Shown here one piece after another: positions 10,662 through 27,254 of a DNA stretch of 64,000 nucleotides. The DNA is taken from the NCBI GenBank assembly GCA_046731735.1, contig JBKPLP010000155.1, positions 14,199-78,198 of the forward strand, read 5' to 3'. Source of the stretch: Acidobacteriota bacterium (GTDB lineage: Bacteria; Acidobacteriota; Vicinamibacteria; Vicinamibacterales; 2-12-FULL-66-21). Made by a program: the position numbers and the translations under genes. Every line of letters begins with the position of its first letter. Position 1 is the stretch's first letter. Under the pieces are notes generated by a model, which saw only the letters and a program-made list of their open reading frames with translations, did not search any database and was not told where the DNA came from.

Positions 10662-10670
10662 GGGGTGCCA

Positions 10671-20079: not shown

Positions 20080-21345
20080 TCAATGCCCCGCCGGCAGCAC
20101 CACCGCCGCTTCTCCCGACGAGCGAAGATACGCTTCGAAGTCCTGGAGCGATCGGCTGATTTGCACGGGCGGCGCGACGCGCGATCCGATGGTTTCCGCC
20201 GCTGTCTTGTACCCGTTGCCGGTAATGCAGATGACCACCGATTCGTCGGGCGCGATGGCGCCCGATTGCACCAGCTGAATGGTGCCGGCGAGCGTCGCGC
20301 CGCCGGCCGGCTCGGTGAAAATGCCTTCGGTTTCGGCGAGCAGCTCCATCGCCTGGAGAATCTGCTCGTCGGTCGACGCGACGCCGGTGCCACCGGTCGA
20401 CGTCACGGTCCGCACGACCTGGAACCCGTCCGCCGGGTTGCCGATCGCGATCGACTTCGCGATCGTCGACGGCTTGACCGGTTCGGGGTACTCGAGACCC
20501 TGCTCCAGCGCACGCACGACCGGCGCACAGCCCGCCGCCTGTGCCGCGTGGATCTTCGGCAGATCACCGGTGACCAGACCCACTTCGCGAAGCTCGCGGA
20601 ACGCTCTGAAGATTCGCGGCAGCAACGTACCACCGGCGACCGGAGACACCAGATGTTTCGGGAAACGCCACCCGAGCTGTTCGACGACTTCGAATCCGAG
20701 GGTTTTGGCCCCTTCCGCGTAGTAGCTGCGCAGATTGATGTTCGCGAAGCCCCATCCGAGCTTGTCGGCAACCTGCGTGCACAGCCGGTTGACGTCGTCG
20801 TAGTTGCCGCGAACCCCGATCACATGCGGCCGGAACACCGCCGACCCGAGCACCTTCCCGAGCTCGAGATCGTCCGGGATGAAGACGTAGCATTCCAGTC
20901 CGAGCCGCGCCGCGTGCGCCGACACGCTGTTCGCAAGATTTCCGGTGGACGCGCAGCCGAACACCGTGAAACCCAGTTCGACCGCGCGGGTTGCCGCGAT
21001 CGAGACCACTCGATCCTTGTACGAGAGCGTCGGATGATTGACCGAATCGTCCTTGATGAAGAGCTCCTGCAGGCCGAGCGTCCTGGCCAGGCGATCGGCC
21101 CGGACGAGCGGCGTACACCCCGAATGGAATCCGGTGCGCGGCTCACCGGTGATCGGCAGCAGCTCACGGAACCTCCACACGTTTCGAGGTCGCCGCTCCA
21201 CCACGTCGCGCGTGAGCGCGCCGCGTACGCCGTCGTAGTCGTAGACCACCTCGAGCGGACCCAGGCATTGATCGCAGACCCACAGCGCCTCGGCAGGAAA
21301 CTTCGCCCCGCACAGATGGCACTGGAGTCCCGTCATGAACGTCAT
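20080..21345 (-). CDS. threonine-synthase-family PLP enzyme (second ThrC paralog; candidate O-phosphohomoserine sulfhydrylase, MetM-like)
   Basis: N-terminal CxxC...CxxC ribbon and a PLP lysine context (PTLSYKDR). Sits between thrB and the sulfur-carrier/E1 gene. Confidence 0.8.
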   Translation of the reverse strand: MTFMTGLQCHLCGAKFPAEALWVCDQCLGPLEVVYDYDGVRGALTRDVVERRPRNVWRFRELLPITGEPRTGFHSGCTPLVRADRLARTLGLQELFIKDDSVNHPTLSYKDRVVSIAATRAVELGFTVFGCASTGNLANSVSAHAARLGLECYVFIPDDLELGKVLGSAVFRPHVIGVRGNYDDVNRLCTQVADKLGWGFANINLRSYYAEGAKTLGFEVVEQLGWRFPKHLVSPVAGGTLLPRIFRAFRELREVGLVTGDLPKIHAAQAAGCAPVVRALEQGLEYPEPVKPSTIAKSIAIGNPADGFQVVRTVTSTGGTGVASTDEQILQAMELLAETEGIFTEPAGGATLAGTIQLVQSGAIAPDESVVICITGNGYKTAAETIGSRVAPPVQISRSLQDFEAYLRSSGEAAVVLPAGH

Positions 21346-22289
21346 GCTTTACCTTTCCCTTTACCTTTCCGTCGCGCGACTGAGCTCGAGACCGCCCCGA
21401 GTCTGGTCGAAGCGCGATGCACCGGCACCGCCCTGATCGTGCAGGCGACCCGCTCCTGCCGGTACGCCTGTTTCAAAATCCGTTCTGCCGCGGCCGTCGG
21501 TCCGTTCGTGAACGCGGCGATGGATGGGCCGGCTCCGCTCAGGCAGAACCCGATCACATCAGGATGCCGCACCGAGAGCAGCCGGCGCAACCCCGGCACC
21601 AGCCGCTCCCGATACGGCTGGTGAACGCGATCGCGGAGCGCCTCCCGAAAATCGTCCGCATCAGCCGACTGGAGCGCGCCGAGGAGGAGTGCCAGCCGCT
21701 GCAGGTTGAACACCGCGTCGCCGACCGGCAGCCGACTCGGGATCGCCCGCCGCGAAAGCGGGGTCGGCAGCTCCAGTGCTGGTGTCGCGACGACGATGCG
21801 CCATGCGCGCGGCCACGGCCACCGGGCAACCCGGATCGTTCCGTCTGCCATGGCGCAGCAGCTCGTCACACCGCCAAACAAGGAAGGCGCGACGTTGTCC
21901 GGGTGCCCTTCGATCTTGGACGCTGCCGAGAGAATTTCGGCCCCGGGCCGCCTGCCGTCCACGAGTTCACGCAGCCGCAGGCCGGCCACGGTGGCGGCGG
22001 CACTGCTTCCCAGCCCGGAGCGCAGTGGAATCTCGCTATGCACTTCGACCTCGAGCGACGGAGCCCGCTTGACACGGCCGAGCGCGCGAAATCCGTCCGC
22101 GATCCGATTCGGCCCCCCGATGGGTCCGTCCACGAAATGCCACGTCAGCCTGCCGCGGCCGTCGTGCTCGATATTCCTGACGCGTAGCCGCAGATACAAC
22201 CCCACTGCAAGGCCCAGCGTGTCGAACCCGGGGCCGAGATTCGCGATGGATCCGGGCACGACAATCTCGCGTGGCCTCACGCGCTGCAT
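21342..22289 (-). CDS. thrB: homoserine kinase
   Basis: Trimmed to MQRVRPREIVVPGSIANLGPGFDTLG. GHMP kinase motif PLRSGLGSSAA. The start overlaps the sulfite reductase stop, and the stop overlaps the next ATG. Confidence 0.85.
   Translation of the reverse strand: MQRVRPREIVVPGSIANLGPGFDTLGLAVGLYLRLRVRNIEHDGRGRLTWHFVDGPIGGPNRIADGFRALGRVKRAPSLEVEVHSEIPLRSGLGSSAAATVAGLRLRELVDGRRPGAEILSAASKIEGHPDNVAPSLFGGVTSCCAMADGTIRVARWPWPRAWRIVVATPALELPTPLSRRAIPSRLPVGDAVFNLQRLALLLGALQSADADDFREALRDRVHQPYRERLVPGLRRLLSVRHPDVIGFCLSGAGPSIAAFTNGPTAAAERILKQAYRQERVACTIRAVPVHRASTRLGAVSSSVARRKGKGKGKA
21347..21370. repeat. CTTTACCTTTCC x2 (TACCTTT family)
   Basis: Lies inside the last 10 codons of the thrB ORF, where it is translated as KGKGKGKA, directly upstream of the next gene's ATG. 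Confidence 0.8.
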
Positions 22290-24127
22290 TCGCCGTCCAT
22301 GACCTCCGGATTGAACGCGTGATCTTCGCCTGGATCGATGAAGTCCTGCGGCCGGACGTCGTCGGCCGTCAGCTGCTCGAGATCCGCCACCGCGGCTCGC
22401 GCCCGCGCGGTGTCGACCCGGTGGAAGAACGTGCCGGCACTCTCGCCGTGTGCCCGTTCCACTTCGTACAGTTTCAATAAACGCTCGACCGCTTCCGGAA
22501 TGCGACGCGCGGGAATCTTCGCGGTCAGGCGGCCGAACTGTGCGCCGTCCTGTCCCTGTCCACCGCCAAGCATCAGAAAGTACTGCGGTACCGCGCGGTC
22601 GCCGAGCTTTCTCACGCTTCCCTGGAATCCGATGCTCGCCACGTGATGCTGCCCGCAGCCGTTCGGGCAGCCACTGATCTTGATCCGCGCGTCCGACGCA
22701 ATCCGCAGCAGTGCGGGCGATTGCTGCTCCAGGTTCTCTTCGATCAGTTTCGCGAGGCCTCGCGACTGCGTGACCGCGAGACGGCACGACTCGGCGCCGG
22801 GACAGCTGGTGACGTCGGTGATCGTGCCCGCGCCGGCGCGCGCGAGACCCGCGGCGGCAAGCCGTCGATACAGCCCAGGCACCTGCCCGCTGCGTACCCA
22901 CCGCAGCAGCAGGTTCTGATCCACTGTGGTGCGCACCAGGCCGTCCGCGTACGCTTTCGACAGCGCGGCGATCGCGCGCATCTGACCCGACGTGATGTCG
23001 CCGAGCTCCAGCGAAACGGTCACCTGGGAGTACTCGCTCTGTTTCTGAGGCCGCAGATTCGTCCGCAGCCACTCGCTGCGCTCACGGCCAGGGCCGCCAT
23101 CTCCTGTCTCCCGCAGCGGGACAATCCCCGGCCCCTTCACCGCGGTCGCACCGACGAGCGCGGCAATGTCGGCGATCGCCGGCGGCTCCGCGCGCTCCGA
23201 CTCAGGCGCCTGTTCAACCGGCGGATTCTCCGGATCGAAGGGCAGGCGTGCGGCGGCGGATGCGCGAAGATCCTCGAGTTCGCGCTGAAACTCGGCGTGC
23301 CACGCCTCCCAACCCATCTTCTTCACGAGGAATTTCAGCCGGTTCCGCTGCTTATGTTCGTAATCGCCATGCCGTTGGAAGACGCGCAGCACCGCTTCCG
23401 CCACCATCAGGATCTCGGATGCCGGCAGGAACTCGTACAGCGATGCGCCCGAACGGCACATGATCGACGTGCCGCCGGCGACCTGCACCCTGAAACCGCG
23501 AGCGCCGGAGCCATCCGGCGCCAGCATCGCGCGATACCCCAGGTCGTTGATTGAGGTTGCCGTATGGTCCTCGGACGCGCATCCCTCGAACGCGATCTTG
23601 AACTTGCGCGGAAGCGCGGAACTGAGCGGATGGCGCAGCAGATAGCGCGTCATCGCCTCCGCATACGGCGTGACGTCGAAGATCTCGTCGCGCGCGACTC
23701 CGGCGTGCGGGCACGCGGTGATATTGCGCACGGAGTTGCCGCACGCTTCACGCGTCGTCAATCCGCTGTCCGCGAGACGCCGCAGGGCGGGCTCTGCGTC
23801 GTGCAACTTCACGAAGTGAAACTGCACGTTCTGCCTGGTCGAAATGTGGCCGAACCCGCGTGAGTAGCGGTCGGCGACGTCGGCGAGCGCCTCCAGCTGC
23901 GCCGCATCCAGAATGCCTTGCGGGATCTTCACGCGCAGCATCTGCGCGTCCGCGTCCTGCCGTTGCCCGTACGTGCCTCGCAGCAAACGGAACCGACGCC
24001 ACTCCTCGGGTGATATGTCGCCGCGCTCGAACTGATCGAGTGTGCGCACGAACTCGTCGATGTCGTTGGTATCGGCAAAGGACAGCCGGGTGCGGCCGTA
24101 AGTGCGAGGATCGTCCAAGACTGCCAT
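22277..24127 (-). CDS. ferredoxin-dependent sulfite reductase (NirA/Sir family, siroheme-[4Fe-4S])
   Basis: Trimmed to MAVLDDPRTYGRT. Two nitrite/sulfite reductase repeats and cluster cysteines (TSCPGAESC, SGCPNGC). Adjacent to siroheme synthesis genes. Confidence 0.85.
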   Translation of the reverse strand: MAVLDDPRTYGRTRLSFADTNDIDEFVRTLDQFERGDISPEEWRRFRLLRGTYGQRQDADAQMLRVKIPQGILDAAQLEALADVADRYSRGFGHISTRQNVQFHFVKLHDAEPALRRLADSGLTTREACGNSVRNITACPHAGVARDEIFDVTPYAEAMTRYLLRHPLSSALPRKFKIAFEGCASEDHTATSINDLGYRAMLAPDGSGARGFRVQVAGGTSIMCRSGASLYEFLPASEILMVAEAVLRVFQRHGDYEHKQRNRLKFLVKKMGWEAWHAEFQRELEDLRASAAARLPFDPENPPVEQAPESERAEPPAIADIAALVGATAVKGPGIVPLRETGDGGPGRERSEWLRTNLRPQKQSEYSQVTVSLELGDITSGQMRAIAALSKAYADGLVRTTVDQNLLLRWVRSGQVPGLYRRLAAAGLARAGAGTITDVTSCPGAESCRLAVTQSRGLAKLIEENLEQQSPALLRIASDARIKISGCPNGCGQHHVASIGFQGSVRKLGDRAVPQYFLMLGGGQGQDGAQFGRLTAKIPARRIPEAVERLLKLYEVERAHGESAGTFFHRVDTARARAAVADLEQLTADDVRPQDFIDPGEDHAFNPEVMDGECSA

Positions 24128-24132
24128 ATGAG

Positions 24133-24909
24133 TTATATCCCGCTCAGACTTCGGCGCTCGGCTTCGGCGTGCCGCACCGCGTCCTGCGTTGAAAGAAGGC
24201 CAGCCAGCGCCGCGACCGCCCCGACGACGATGACGCCCGGCAGGCCGCTGTCCTCGACGGCGTCCCGCACGGCGAGTAAATCGAGCGTGCCGTGCCACTC
24301 CTCCGCCCCGGGGTGCGAGGCGCCGAACAGCACGGCCGCCGGAGTCTGCGCAGCCCAGCCCGATGCGCGCAGCTGGTCGACGATCGCCGCACGATTCGCG
24401 ATGCCCATGAGTACGACGATCGTCGCGCTGCCCGGCGCCAGCGACCGCAGCACCGGCCCATACGCCGACTCGGCATGGCCCGAGAGGACGATGAACGCAG
24501 ATGCCAGACCGCGATGCGTGACGGGAATCCCCGCAAGCAGCGGCGCCGCGATGGCGCTGCTGATTCCCGGAACGACTTCACAGGGGATGCCTGCGGCAGC
24601 GAGGGCCAGCGCCTCTTCGCCGCCGCGGCCGAACACGAACGGGTCGCCGCACTTCAGGCGGACGACCTTGTGGCCGCGCCGCGCCTCGCGAACCATCAGC
24701 CGGTTGATCGCGTCCTGCCGGATCGCCGGGCGCCCCGCGCGCTTACCGACGAAGAAACGCCGCGCGCGCGCGGCATGGCGCAACGCGGCAGTATCCACGA
24801 GCGCATCGTAGAGCACCAGATCCGCTTCCTCGAGACGCCGCACGGCCTTGACGGTGAGCAGCTCCGGATCGCCCGGGCCGGCGCCGATGAGGGAGACAGA
24901 ACCAGTCAT
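24133..24909 (-). CDS. cobA: uroporphyrinogen-III C-methyltransferase
   Basis: 258 aa with LIGAGPGDPELLT and GDPFVFGRGGEE motifs. Confidence 0.9.
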   Translation of the reverse strand: MTGSVSLIGAGPGDPELLTVKAVRRLEEADLVLYDALVDTAALRHAARARRFFVGKRAGRPAIRQDAINRLMVREARRGHKVVRLKCGDPFVFGRGGEEALALAAAGIPCEVVPGISSAIAAPLLAGIPVTHRGLASAFIVLSGHAESAYGPVLRSLAPGSATIVVLMGIANRAAIVDQLRASGWAAQTPAAVLFGASHPGAEEWHGTLDLLAVRDAVEDSGLPGVIVVGAVAALAGLLSTQDAVRHAEAERRSLSGI

Positions 24910-25697
24910 TTTTTACTCTGCGCTGGGGCCCCACCCCCAGCGCCTGCCAGCACTCGCTCATCGCTCGTGCCGCTGTTTCGATCGACATCCCGCTTAGTCA
25001 ACATCGGGGCCCCACCCTCAACGCCTGCCAGCACTCGCTCATCGCTCGTGCCGCTGGTTCGATCGACATCCCGCTTAGTCAACATCGGGGCCCCACCCTC
25101 AACGCCTGCCAGCACTCGCTCATCGCTCGTGCCGCTGGTTCGATCGACATCCCGCTTAGTCGACATCGATCTCGATGTGTAGAGCGCATTCAGGGCTTCG
25201 AGCAGCTCCGGGCGGCGTGCCTCCATCGGCACTTCCCGCTCGCGCCATGAGCGGCGCAGCTCGTGTGCGCGCTCGCTCCAACTCTCGAGATCACTCGGGA
25301 GCAGGGCATCCAGCGCTTCGCGAAGCAGTCCCGCGAGCGCGGGCGCCGCTCCGTCGGTCGAGATCCCCAGCGTCACCCCGCCCCGACGGACGACGCCGCC
25401 GAGATACACGGTGGCGTTCGCGGGATCGTCGACGGCGTTCACGAAAACCTGCCGGCGCTCCGCTGCCTCCGCCACACGGCGATTGACCTCGGGGGGCGCG
25501 GCCGCAACAACGAACCAGGCCTCGTCGACATCCGACGGCTCGAAACCCCGGCGCTCGATTCGTACGCCGGCGGCCTCGACCTCTTGGCACACGTCGGGCG
25601 CGACGACCGTCACGTCAGCGCCAGCGGCCTTCAGTGCGGCCAGCTTCGACGCGGCGACAGGACCGGCGCCGACGACGAGCACCCGGCGGCGGTGCAA
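24906..25697 (-). CDS. sirC: precorrin-2 dehydrogenase / sirohydrochlorin ferrochelatase (SirC/CysG-N type) with repeat-derived C-terminal tail
   Basis: VLVVGAGPVAASKL Rossmann fold and a VNAVDDP motif. TTG 25697 or GTG 25682 start. The last ~85 aa are encoded by the 81-bp tandem repeat. Confidence 0.75.
   Translation of the reverse strand: MHRRRVLVVGAGPVAASKLAALKAAGADVTVVAPDVCQEVEAAGVRIERRGFEPSDVDEAWFVVAAAPPEVNRRVAEAAERRQVFVNAVDDPANATVYLGGVVRRGGVTLGISTDGAAPALAGLLREALDALLPSDLESWSERAHELRRSWREREVPMEARRPELLEALNALYTSRSMSTKRDVDRTSGTSDERVLAGVEGGAPMLTKRDVDRTSGTSDERVLAGVEGGAPMLTKRDVDRNSGTSDERVLAGAGGGAPAQSKK
24925..25167. repeat. 81-bp tandem repeat x3
   Basis: Copies start at 24925, 25006 and 25087 and differ by only a few substitutions. 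The unit is ~GGGGCCCCACCCTCAACGCCTGCCAGCACTCGCTCATCGCTCGTGCCGCTGGTTCGATCGACATCCCGCTTAGTCAACATC. Confidence 0.95.
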
Positions 25698-25743
25698 CTT
25701 CAGGAACGCTGGGAACAGGGCGATGACGGCAACTCCTTTCCAT

Positions 25744-25786
25744 GAAAAACAAAAAGCCCGGGAGGTGTCTGGCCTCCCGGGCTTCG
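25744..25786 (-). terminator. intrinsic terminator / attenuator hairpin upstream of sirC
   Basis: Minus strand reads AAGCCCGGGAGG-ccagaca-CCTCCCGGGCTT followed by TTTGTTTTT. The 12-bp GC stem lies 20 nt after the poly-Cys leader stop. Confidence 0.8.
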
Positions 25787-25809
25787 TTATGTCTCGTGCG
25801 TTGAATGCT

Positions 25810-25908
25810 TTAGAACATCACGCCTGGACCGAAGGCAGGGAAGCCCCGAATGCTGCACATACAGCAGCAGCAGCAACAATTACAGGCGCAGGGGTTCCCG
25901 TAGAGCAT
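25810..25908 (-). CDS. candidate polycysteine leader peptide (32 aa)
   Basis: ATG CTC TAC GGG AAC CCC TGC GCC TGT AAT TGT TGC TGC TGC TGC TGT ATG TGC AGC ATT CGG GGC TTC CCT GCC TTC GGT CCA GGC GTG ATG TTC TAA = MLYGNPCACNCCCCCCMCSIRGFPAFGPGVMF. Confidence 0.6.
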   Translation of the reverse strand: MLYGNPCACNCCCCCCMCSIRGFPAFGPGVMF

Positions 25909-25915
25909 TTTGCTG

Positions 25916-25945
25916 TTTATACCCCACCTCAGGCCGGAATCGCAA
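25916..25945 (-). promoter_or_regulatory. candidate promoter TTGCGA-N18-TATAAA for the poly-Cys leader (near-leaderless)
   Basis: Minus strand reads TTGCGAttccggcctgaggtggggTATAAAcagcaaaATG. The -35 element lies in the last codons of thrC. Confidence 0.35.
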
Positions 25946-27254
25946 GATCGAGGTGCCTCCGCACCTGGTCATAATCGTTGGGCAGCTCGATGGGGCGGTT
26001 CGCCCGCCGCGACACGATCCCCTCCAGGGTGCCCGCGTGGTAGCCCGCCTTGAAATCCGTGAATTTCAGGCCGCTCGCGGTCGAAATCACCACCACCCGG
26101 TCGCTTGCCTTGATCTCGCCTCGTCCTGCGAGCTTGATCAGTGCGGCCAGCGCAACGCCGGTGTGCGGACACGCGAACATGCCGGTCTTGTCGGCATGAG
26201 CGACCGCGTCCGCAAGCTCCTGCTCGTTGGCCTGTTCGACTGTCCCGCCGGAGCGCTTCAGGGCGGCAATCGCCTTCTGCACGGAAACCGGGTTCCCGAT
26301 TTGAATCGCCGACGCGAGCGTCGGACGCGCGGTGACCGGCTTGAATTGCCAGCGATTCAGCGACGCCAGGTAAAGCGGGTTGGCCGCTTCGGCCTGCGCC
26401 GCGATCAGTCGCGGCACGCGCGCAACCAGGCCAAGGTCCCGCATCATCTCAAAGCCGGCGGCGAACGCGCTGATGTTTCCCAGGTTGCCCGCCGGGACGA
26501 TGACGACGTCCGGCACCTGCCAGTCGAACTGCTGGGCAATCTCGATGGCGACCGTCTTCTGCCCTTCGAGCCGCAGACTGTTCATCGAGTTCGCCAGGTA
26601 CAGCCCTTCGTCGTCGGCCAGCCGCTGGATGATCGCCATGCACCCGTCAAAATCCGTGTCGAGTGCGAAGACGACCGCTCCGTTGGCCAGGGGCTGGACC
26701 AGTTGCGCGACGGTCACTTTCCCCCGCGGCAGCACGACAATGGCGGGAATCTCCGCGGCGGCGGCGTACGCGGCAAGCGATGCCGACGTATCGCCCGTGG
26801 ACGCGCAGCCGACTGCGCGGATCTGCTTCCCCTGGGCCATCATCTGGCGGACCATGGACACGAGCACCGTCATCCCGAGGTCCTTGAACGATCCCGTGTG
26901 CGAGTTGCCACACAACTTGACCCAGACGTCCTTCAAGCCGATCGATCGGCCGAACGCGTCGGCGAGAAACAGATTCGTGCCCCCCTCATCCATCGAGACT
27001 ACGTTCTCATCTTCGATTTCCGGGCAGACCCACTCCTTCTTGCCCCAGACGCTCGATCCGTACGGCCATGCGGTGCGCTTGTACCGTTCATCGAAGAGAC
27101 GCATCCACGCCGCCGCGCTCCGGTCGCGGAGCGCGTCCAGGTCGTGAACGACCTCGAGCAGACCGCCGCAGGTCGGACAGCGGTAGATGACCGTGTCCAG
27201 CGAATACGACCCGGGACAGCCGGCGACGCAGCGGAACTCGGCGCGATAGCTCAC
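25929..27254 (-). CDS. thrC: threonine synthase
   Basis: 441 aa. N-terminal Zn-ribbon-like CxxC...CxxC and a PLP lysine context (HTGSFKDLG). Confidence 0.9.

Follow-up and report, generated by a model that had tools for sequence, protein, structure and literature searches.

The C-terminal tail of a Vicinamibacterales SirC is a translated, amplified copy of a normally non-coding two-hairpin repeat

The sirC–cobA junction and its repeat array

We analysed a stretch of 64 000 nucleotides (hereafter the window) from an Acidobacteriota bacterium of the Vicinamibacterales (assembly GCA_046731735.1, contig JBKPLP010000155.1, positions 14 199–78 198), in which the open reading frame (ORF) of sirC ends in three tandem copies of an 81-nt repeat directly before cobA. 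The ORF, on the minus strand at 24906..25697, encodes 263 aa, of which residues 1–176 (25170–25697) form the SirC core and residues 177–263 a tail encoded by the repeat. The product is a precorrin-2 dehydrogenase/sirohydrochlorin ferrochelatase of the CysG N-terminal type, for which 6205 homologues were retrieved. It scores 124.1 bits against TIGR01470 (cutoff 62.3), which places it among SirC/CysG N-terminal domains, and matches Pfam NAD_binding_7 (PF13241) over residues 2–100 (4.5e-25, 88.7 bits, cutoff 22.1) and, slightly below the cutoff of 25, Sirohm_synth_M (PF14824) over residues 105–129 (22.7 bits). The alignment to the CysG model reaches residue 178. An original prediction, made from the DNA letters alone, had placed the start of the repeats where a normal SirC would end, after about 176 aa; this agrees with the end of SirC homology at residue ~176–178 and with tail-less relatives of 177 aa, and because the homology stops there the repeats are an appendage to the enzyme. 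Downstream, cobA (24133..24909, minus strand) encodes uroporphyrinogen-III C-methyltransferase (TP_methylase, 2.7e-46; TIGR01469, 263 bits, cutoff 185). As predicted, the two genes overlap in an ATGA (24906..24909), with the cobA ATG at 24909–24907 and the sirC TGA at 24908–24906, and we infer that cobA is translationally coupled to sirC.

Tandem Repeats Finder (TRF) resolved the array at 24925–25168 with a period of 81, 3.0 copies, 97% matches and a score of 460, by a wide margin the strongest tandem repeat of the window. A 31-mer of the unit occurs three times in the window, against 0 expected from 100 shuffles. The copies at 25006 and 25087 differ by a single nucleotide, and the cobA-proximal copy at 24925 differs from both by 3–4 nt. 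All three lie head to tail and are read through by the sirC ORF, since 81 is a multiple of 3 and the unit has no stop in this frame; the three in-frame copies predicted to end the ORF are therefore present, translated in order as MSTKRDVDRTSGTSDERVLAGVEGGAP, MLTKRDVDRTSGTSDERVLAGVEGGAP and MLTKRDVDRNSGTSDERVLAGAGGGAP, followed by AQSKK and the stop codon. Their peptides had been described as identical and are in fact near-identical, with the consensus M(S/L)TKRDVDR(T/N)SGTSDERVLAG(VE/AG)GGAP; tryptic peptides of the tail include DVDRTSGTSDER and VLAGVEGGAPMLTK. The opposite strand is open as well, as had been noted, in that a plus-strand ORF (24292..25182) spans the repeat, but we rejected it as a gene, since it runs antisense to cobA and is a usual high-GC artefact.

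Each unit corresponds to part of a structured element with two hairpins, H1 and H2, of which the window holds one complete copy. Unit 1, next to the SirC core (25087..25167, minus strand), consists of a 5' extension (ATG TCGACTAAGCGG..CGATCG) and H1, followed by only the 5' strand and loop of H2, which is cut at the duplication junction between CCCC and GATG; its covariance-model match (25069–25143, minus strand) reaches 64.8 bits with H2 mispaired. The internal unit 2 (25006..25086, minus strand), 1 nt different from unit 1, is truncated in the same way and also matches with 64.8 bits (24988–25062, minus strand). Units 1 and 2 thus have H1 and no H2, because the junction, at which ...GGGGCCCC meets GATGTTGAC..., removes the 3' strand of H2. 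Unit 3, next to cobA (24925..25005, minus strand), forms together with 24907–24924 the sole complete copy, matched by the model at 24907–24981 (minus strand) with 95.5 bits (E 1.4e-19). In this copy H1 (24948..24972, minus strand) has the stem CGGCAC/GUGCUG and the invariant loop GAGCGAUGAGCGA, as indicated by the predicted fold, RNAalifold and pair counts, and carries the A-U variant of a covarying pair described below. H2 (24920..24943, minus strand) has a 9-bp stem, GCGCUGGGG/CCCCAGCGC, and the loop GUGGGG. An A-rich 3' tail, AGAGUAAAAAAUG (24907..24919, minus strand; family consensus GCGC-AAAGTAAGAAATG), ends in the bases of the cobA start codon; the structure stops 10 nt 5' of the cobA ATG.

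The dispersed element family and its predicted structure

The tail-encoding unit is a copy of a dispersed, normally non-coding element, which supports the earlier suggestion that an intergenic element was captured into coding sequence; close relatives have empty sites (see below). The entire unit is homologous to the family, including its TTGACTAAGCGG 5' part and its A-rich 3' part. Read 5' to 3' on the coding strand, the element comprises a variable 5' extension, often with TTGACTAAGCrG at its start; H1, CGGCNC / GN'GCUG with the invariant loop GAGCGAnnGAGCGA; a GCAG linker; H2, GCGNUGGGG / CCCCAN'CGC with the loop GUGGGG; and an A-rich tail, AAAGUAAGAAA, frequently continuous with an AUG. 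It measures ~75–100 nt, with a core of 75 nt shared by the window unit and the family, and many copies start with (c)TTGACTAAGCrG and end in GCGC-AAAGTAAGAAA(A/T)G.

A strict 31-nt pattern gave 0 matches in GTDB representative genomes. A degenerate 25-mer found 82 stretches in GTDB genomes, ~60 of them in metagenome-assembled genomes (MAGs) of Vicinamibacterales or 'Acidobacteriota': ~15 loci in MFD02840.bin.1.123, 11 in GS_HAYS_MAG_00036, 7 in GS_EKS_MAG_00027 and 4–5 in each of three others. None of these ~60 copies adjoins sirC or cobA. The other ~20 of the 82 matches, from other phyla, are devoid of the hairpins and flanks; we rejected them as chance or unrelated, and they include one conserved gene of Massilia, Pseudoduganella and Herbaspirillum, and actinomycetes. 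Scanning JGI metagenomes with a 22-mer yielded six loci, of which two are sirC–cobA junctions (L012 and L013), one has the element between a divergent rpiB-like gene and an RlmI-like gene (L010), two have it, in antisense to both neighbours, between genes for a sigma-54 regulator and a histidine kinase (L009 and L011), and one (L014) was discarded as a chance match. A covariance model (R1) recovered 90–96 copies in the ~491 kb of fetched loci, which are stretches of at most 8 kb around pattern matches, and ~15 of these copies had been missed by the pattern. Run on the window with filters off, the same model matched the three sirC units only, with the next best match at 13 bits. The earlier statement that no related unit lies elsewhere is thus correct for the 64-kb window alone, since the unit belongs to a genome-wide family.

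The element also forms tandem arrays at other loci (L015, L042 and L093, also L021, L049 and L060). In MAG MFD02840, (GTGCGAC)n heptamer arrays stand directly 5' of element copies in place of the usual 5' extension; the loci listed with such arrays are L017, L037, L042, L049, L060, L066, L092 and L093. The array at sirC is in kind a known phenomenon, a small structured repeat of dispersed occurrence that is translated on occasion and here amplified as an in-frame variable-number tandem repeat (VNTR). The two-hairpin family itself appears to be new, and we did not find it described in the literature on Acidobacteria or Vicinamibacter repeats.

Copies of the element are placed in a characteristic way. 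Between co-directional flanking genes it lies sense to them in 28 cases and antisense in 6, and relative to the downstream gene it is sense in 40 and antisense in 14. The distance from the end of H2 to a following start codon is usually 3–40 nt, and several copies supply that start themselves, as the ATG of the consensus tail. Downstream genes named by Pfam are rplL, an RlmI-like methyltransferase, nuoJ, gltX, lysS, ahcY and yqeY, together with genes for a phosphoketolase, a class III aminotransferase and a sulfate-binding protein. For example, in two MAGs the element and a partial upstream copy precede rplL (L7/L12) directly and in sense (L016:420–494 and L096:3081–3155), the upstream gene being rplJ as judged by eye. 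Copies inside essential operons show that transcription is not blocked by the element. When the fetched loci were tested directly for ORFs, none of the ~60 other copies gave convincing read-through from an upstream gene, so the capture by sirC is exceptional; a 59-aa two-unit peptide query had no match at E<=0.001, which is uninformative for a short low-complexity query.

Both hairpins were predicted independently by RNAalifold from an alignment of 51 copies (A1). Pair 20:38 is GC in 27 copies, CG in 17 and AU in 5, and pair 50:68 is CG in 38, GC in 6, AU in 4 and UA in 2; in the H2 stem of the complete window copy, the covarying pair is the fourth. The covariation score is 0.133 against 0.036 for shuffled alignments, none of 500 shuffles reaching 0.133, and pairing falls to 32–48% in slid registers. 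Two positions left free by the search pattern covary with partners outside it. In an alignment of 90 model matches (A3), two-sided changes occur in 10 of 15 pairs, against 2.8 ± 0.8 when shuffled, and 97% of cells are paired. Compensatory changes independent of subfamilies are seen between orthologous copies: L016 and L096, with ~97% identical flanks, have C-G and A-T, respectively, at both partners of an H2 pair, and an H2 pair at sirC is C-G in the window and U-A in L004. The H1 stem keeps a G.U pair in 82 of 89 copies, which on the opposite strand would be a C-A mismatch. The complete window copy folds better than its shuffles (z = -4.48, 0 of 200 as good), as do copies at L075 (-4.6) and L046 (-3.8). 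The fold of an internal truncated unit (unit 2) is no better than shuffled (z = -0.39) and that of the whole 311-nt array is not significant (z = -1.35); of the folds as RNA, proposed for the unit at the outset, only those of single complete copies stand out.

Taken together, the sense bias, the G.U pair, the compensatory changes and the position before start codons lead us to infer a role of the element as RNA. The family is a reasonable candidate for a functional RNA motif in view of its covariation, its conservation and where it sits relative to start codons, and an RNA element affecting the coupling of sirC and cobA, as the original prediction had it, is plausible on these sequence data. 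The element matches no Rfam 15 family: at gathering thresholds, 8 loci carrying canonical copies yielded tRNAs and nothing else. When the window was searched at E<=1, the only Rfam match on the element was Chlorobi-1 with 18.9 bits (gathering 50), and we dismissed this and the other sub-threshold matches (isrL, Bp2_287 and mir-3155) as chance.

Variation at sirC and origin of the array

SirC homologues of soil Acidobacteriota range from 177 to 290 aa, and an alignment of their C-termini shows one sub-clade with the motif SGTSDERVLAGAGGGAPAQ..K. The motif occurs once in most members (P0004, P0005, P0014, P0015, P0043, P0044 and P0060) and two or three times, with differing unit boundaries, in P0002, P0003 and P0007, while extra inserts occur in the tails of P0010–13, P0016–18 and P0021–22. 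Within the 90%-identity cluster of the window there are 2 units (P0122/L002, 236 aa), 3 (the window) or 4 (P0121/L001, 290 aa), and all members end in APAQSKK; at the DNA level both L001 and L002 have a period of 81, and every L001 unit has its own substitutions. The nearest tail-less relatives, P0008/L097 (91% identical) and P0009/L098–99 (88%), represent empty sites, with a SirC of 177 aa that ends in TSREQERIQ or ESRAQERVR, respectively, and a direct GTGA overlap with cobA (L097–L099). The array had been proposed to be a variable-number repeat of recent expansion. Consistent with the former, close relatives carry 0, 1, 2, 3 or 4 units at sirC, although the exact counts rest on metagenome assemblies, and independent amplifications occur elsewhere; the latter fits the single-nucleotide difference between the internal units and the variation in copy number inside one 90%-identity cluster. 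When the 150-aa SirC core is placed on a neighbour-joining tree, alleles with the element group into a single clade, in which tail-less alleles (P0008, P0009, P0020 and P0024) are nested and at least four independent amplifications can be placed. This is most simply explained by a single old gain, after which the element was lost several times and amplified several times independently.

A second repeat, (G)CCGCCTTCGCC(A/G)AGGCTACGGCG..., itself dispersed, is nested in the H2 loop at L037, L044, L058 and L082 and in L008 (L008:3198–3342, P0016), whose SirC tail includes its translation, GPPSLGSDPTPNYGELGRSVGVGQ. A related 48-nt insert encodes DPSAELRVVLSASKDE-like peptides in the SirC tails of P0010–12, P0017, P0021 and P0022, and in L005.

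To judge from its sequence, the element is old at sirC. Its 56-nt core (AGCGGCACGAGCGAyGAGCGAGTGCTGGCAGGCGCTGGGGGTGGGGCCCCAGCGCA) is 95–100% identical between the window and L003, L004, L005 and L007, in which third-codon positions of the SirC core are only 48–55% identical to those of the window and the 5' part of the tail is not conserved. The A-U form of the covarying H1 pair is found in 5 of the 51 aligned copies, namely at sirC of the window, L007 and L004, and in L009 and L011; this signature at sirC speaks for inheritance at the locus and against homogenisation by copies elsewhere. The reading frame is constrained as well. The periods of sirC arrays are 81, 81, 81 and 87 nt by TRF, and 93 nt (31 aa) in L004 (P0003) as read from the sequence. 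Arrays of the element in non-coding positions have periods of 91, 67 and 52 nt and contain stops in every sense frame. The restriction to multiples of 3 is direct evidence of selection keeping the sirC frame open across the captured element. The element's TTGACTAAG holds stops in two frames, TGA and TAA, and sirC happens to be read in the remaining one (TTG-ACT-AAG).

We therefore consider it probable that the array arose by tandem in-frame amplification of a captured copy of the dispersed two-hairpin element, and that a structured copy and an open frame were selected while the peptide was not. In an ancestor of the sirC clade, one copy would have come to occupy the sirC–cobA junction. Because sirC reads TTGACTAAG in the stop-free third frame, its ORF would run through the whole element to a stop at the cobA start. 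An illegitimate duplication at ~1 nt of microhomology could then have joined ...GGGGCCCC to GATGTTGAC..., after which slippage or unequal recombination between the 81-nt repeats may have changed the number of units to 2, 3 or 4. We postulate that selection acted on the nucleotide sequence and structure of a complete element copy and on an open sirC frame, so that ribosomes would unfold both hairpins and end sirC translation at the cobA AUG, allowing translational coupling. The stop of sirC lies at this AUG in the ATGA of the window cluster and a few nucleotides away in others.

Several known systems resemble this arrangement in part. As in other in-frame VNTRs, the period is a multiple of 3 and close strains differ in their number of near-identical units; unlike in the usual VNTR, the unit derives from a non-coding structured element, the gene that carries it encodes a cytoplasmic enzyme of biosynthesis and not a surface or contingency protein, and the peptide appears unselected. 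By an analogy of architecture, the element is like intercistronic stem–loop stabiliser or processing sites (repetitive extragenic palindromic (REP) sequences in malE–malF, puf operon hairpins), in which stable sense hairpins are followed by a single-stranded A/U-rich stretch. Rickettsia palindromic elements (RPE) are dispersed palindromic repeats, likewise translated in frame within functional proteins, where the additional peptide is tolerated; RPE, mentioned in PMC3733652, lie inside many genes, whereas here in-frame capture is exceptional, C-terminal and followed by tandem amplification. MITEs (transposable elements of the miniature inverted-repeat type; Correia/NEMIS, ERIC, RUP) are likewise small structured repeats near genes that are co-transcribed and can alter expression of their neighbours (PMC3733652), but they are defined by terminal inverted repeats of 15–30 bp and target-site duplications. 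By inspection of the alignment, without a formal search, TTGACTAAGCrG and AAGTAAGAAAaGCTGAC at the two ends are not reverse complements. TGAC stands at both ends of many copies, including that of the window (TTGACTAAG ... ATGACTGG), and comparison of empty and filled sirC sites gives no clean insertion with a duplication.

A further likeness to be weighed is with REP sequences and bacterial interspersed mosaic elements (BIMEs), which are also short GC-rich hairpins dispersed in spacers, mostly between co-directional genes. REPs are often co-transcribed and often tandem, sometimes provide stop codons and are occasionally translated in ORFs (PMC3733652). The family shares with them dispersed high-copy palindromes, with ~60 strict copies, at most ~15 loci per MAG and 96 model matches in 491 kb. 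It differs in having two different hairpins, invariant loops and an A-rich tail over ~75–100 nt in all, in being conserved across species, and in typically ending just before a start codon and not just after a stop. The REP foot (GTAG, GT[AG]G or CGTC; criteria from PMC3733652 and PMC6006769) is absent from either hairpin on either strand in alignment A1, the bases 5' of H1 being variable and those 5' of H2 being GCAG. The CnGA foot of class 3 TnpA-Y1 hairpins (PMC6006769) is likewise found beside neither H1 nor H2 in the 51-copy alignment.

Several points weigh against amplification of a captured, selected RNA element. Compensatory pairs and a consistent orientation, as expected of a generic structured cis-acting RNA, were obtained subject to pattern ascertainment, a model-fitted alignment and crude gene calls: in A1 most stem columns are fixed by the search pattern and only two pairs are free, A3 was fitted to the model and is biased towards structure, and gene context was called by a crude GC3/open-frame rule rather than by gene prediction. 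The sense bias could also stem from strand-specific single-stranded DNA transposition combined with gene-strand bias, and gene conversion or short recombination tracts might in principle explain the high conservation at sirC. In L003, L005 and L007 the sirC stop lies a few nucleotides 5' of the cobA ATG without overlap. Further, units 1 and 2 differ at 1 of 81 nt, and the resulting near-exact repeat of ~160 nt exceeds the k-mers that assemblers commonly use; among related short-read contigs, L013 breaks off within the array and L012 begins there; and the exact count of 3 comes from one assembly, in which a short-read assembler could have mis-counted the units. Were the array or its copy number the product of a mis-assembled short tandem repeat, the real genome would hold one unit or a different number. 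We regard such an artefact as improbable, since independent assemblies from different samples and pipelines contain 2 units (ENA, L002), at least 2 (JGI, L012) and 4 (JGI, L001), the L001 units each carry their own substitutions, the arrays of other lineages differ in period and consist of diverged units (L003, 90% matches), and contigs hundreds of kb long carry tandem arrays of this element at further loci (L042, L093). The independent assemblies and diverged arrays therefore argue that the array is real and that only the exact count of 3 is uncertain.

It seems to us very unlikely that the 27-aa repeats are a selected protein feature, that is, a functional SirC extension that links domains, docks CobA or sulfite reductase, or acts as a spacer of tunable length, in which case the amplification would be adaptive at the level of the protein. 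Such a role would account for the motif SGTSDERVLAGAGGGAPAQ being kept in many SirC homologues, for a tail at the position of the interdomain linker of fused CysG, and for a frame preserved in all sirC arrays. However, the same nucleotide sequence is kept at ~60 non-coding loci with stops in all sense frames, and the closest relatives lack the tail. Among the 11 units of the close cluster there are 5 synonymous and 13 non-synonymous variants, or 28% synonymous against a neutral expectation of 27%, and in the truncated units of the window, L001 and L002 substitutions concentrate in the H2 half that has no pairing partner. AlphaFold gives a confident Rossmann core and places residues 189–257 in coil with a predicted local distance difference test (pLDDT) score below 50, which fits the disordered C-terminal tail suggested earlier; the tail peptide is an unselected, probably disordered by-product. 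A stronger contender, though one we still consider unlikely, is selfish DNA: a non-autonomous REP- or MITE-like element moved via single-stranded DNA hairpins by a Y1 transposase of the REP-associated (RAYT) or IS200/IS605 type, with the sirC copy and its amplification as neutral hitch-hikers and the covariation reflecting transposase recognition. Its dispersed GC-rich hairpins, its tandem clusters, the second repeat nested in the H2 loop and the TGAC that bounds many copies on both sides would all suit such an origin. REPs are moreover known to supply stop codons, to sit in ORFs and to form tandem clusters encoding 43–82 aa (PMC3733652), and a rare class 3 TnpA-Y1 with atypical hairpins, with ~600 copies in Solibacter, has been reported in Acidobacteria (PMC6006769). 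Against it stand the lack of any of the feet named above at either stem and, on inspection, of terminal inverted repeats. REPs are described as species-specific (PMC6006769), whereas the core of this element is 95–100% identical across lineages with saturated synonymous sites; the orthologous sirC locus keeps its own H1 signature, the G.U pair of H1 is strand-specific, and copies persist inside essential operons such as rplJ–rplL and nuo.

We tentatively suggest, as a possibility of less than even odds, that the two-hairpin element is a cis-acting RNA module maintained by the host, a portable intercistronic cassette of stop, H1, H2, A-rich leader and start. If so, it would be an mRNA processing or stabilising site, or a protein- or ribosome-binding module for translation initiation, with the invariant loops (GAGCGA twice, and GUGGGG) as ligand sites, and it would control rplL, gltX, lysS, nuoJ, rlmI, ahcY and cobA; at sirC, nature would then have run an experiment by stacking additional H1 modules upstream of the functional copy. 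As RNA the family would be a new regulatory or processing motif for Vicinamibacteria, and as mobile DNA a type of repeat without the known hallmarks of REPs or MITEs. Either way, it is an apparently undescribed, strongly conserved two-hairpin family in an abundant but little-studied soil lineage, located directly upstream of the start codons of core housekeeping genes and marked by compensatory evolution. The implication for sirC is an explanation of its odd end, so that annotators should not take the SirC tail for a new domain. The locus also offers a rare comparison, at a single junction, of empty, single-copy, multi-copy and nested-insertion alleles.

Upstream of sirC and elsewhere in the window

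A small minus-strand ORF at 25810–25908 encodes MLYGNPCACNCCCCCCMCSIRGFPAFGPGVMF, with 9 Cys in 32 aa, six of them consecutive. It is followed by a strong intrinsic terminator (25753–25785, minus strand; 13-bp stem and T-run) that lies ~55 nt upstream of sirC. The Cys peptide (..GNPCACNCCCC(C)MCS.RGFPAFGPGV..) and the terminator are kept upstream of sirC in L001, L003–L008 and L098, and together they look like a cysteine-codon leader-peptide attenuator for an operon of sirC, cobA and sulfite reductase (sulfate assimilation). A promoter scan of 24000–26100 gave no sigma-70-like site, leaving a reading of the TTGACT at each unit start as a -35 box unsupported.

At the other end of sirC, the stop codon in the window cluster is preceded by six A (AGU AAA AAA UGA) and cobA lies in the -1 frame (AUG A). 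It may be speculated that a -1 slip on the A-run would yield a CysG-like SirC–CobA fusion; we set this aside, as the run is not kept in L004, L006 and L008. The sirC TAA of L005 and L007 is followed, two codons on and in the same frame, by the cobA ATG.

Further short repeats are present in the window. TRF located 7-nt microsatellites at 10670, 16999, 35490, 36693, 41441, 42903 and 60893, with units that include AAGGTAA (x6.4), TTTACCT (x4.3), TTCGCGG (x6.9), CGCGATT (x8.3), AGCTATC (x3.7), ATCCCTA and ATTGCTG, and heptamer arrays may be a general feature of these genomes. Lastly, a minus-strand ORF at 21342..23072 with a homoserine-kinase-like part has the C-terminus ...RRKGKGKGKA, encoded by a short tandem repeat of CTTTACCTTTCC (21347–21370, TRF), and is possibly another case of a repeat-derived ORF end.

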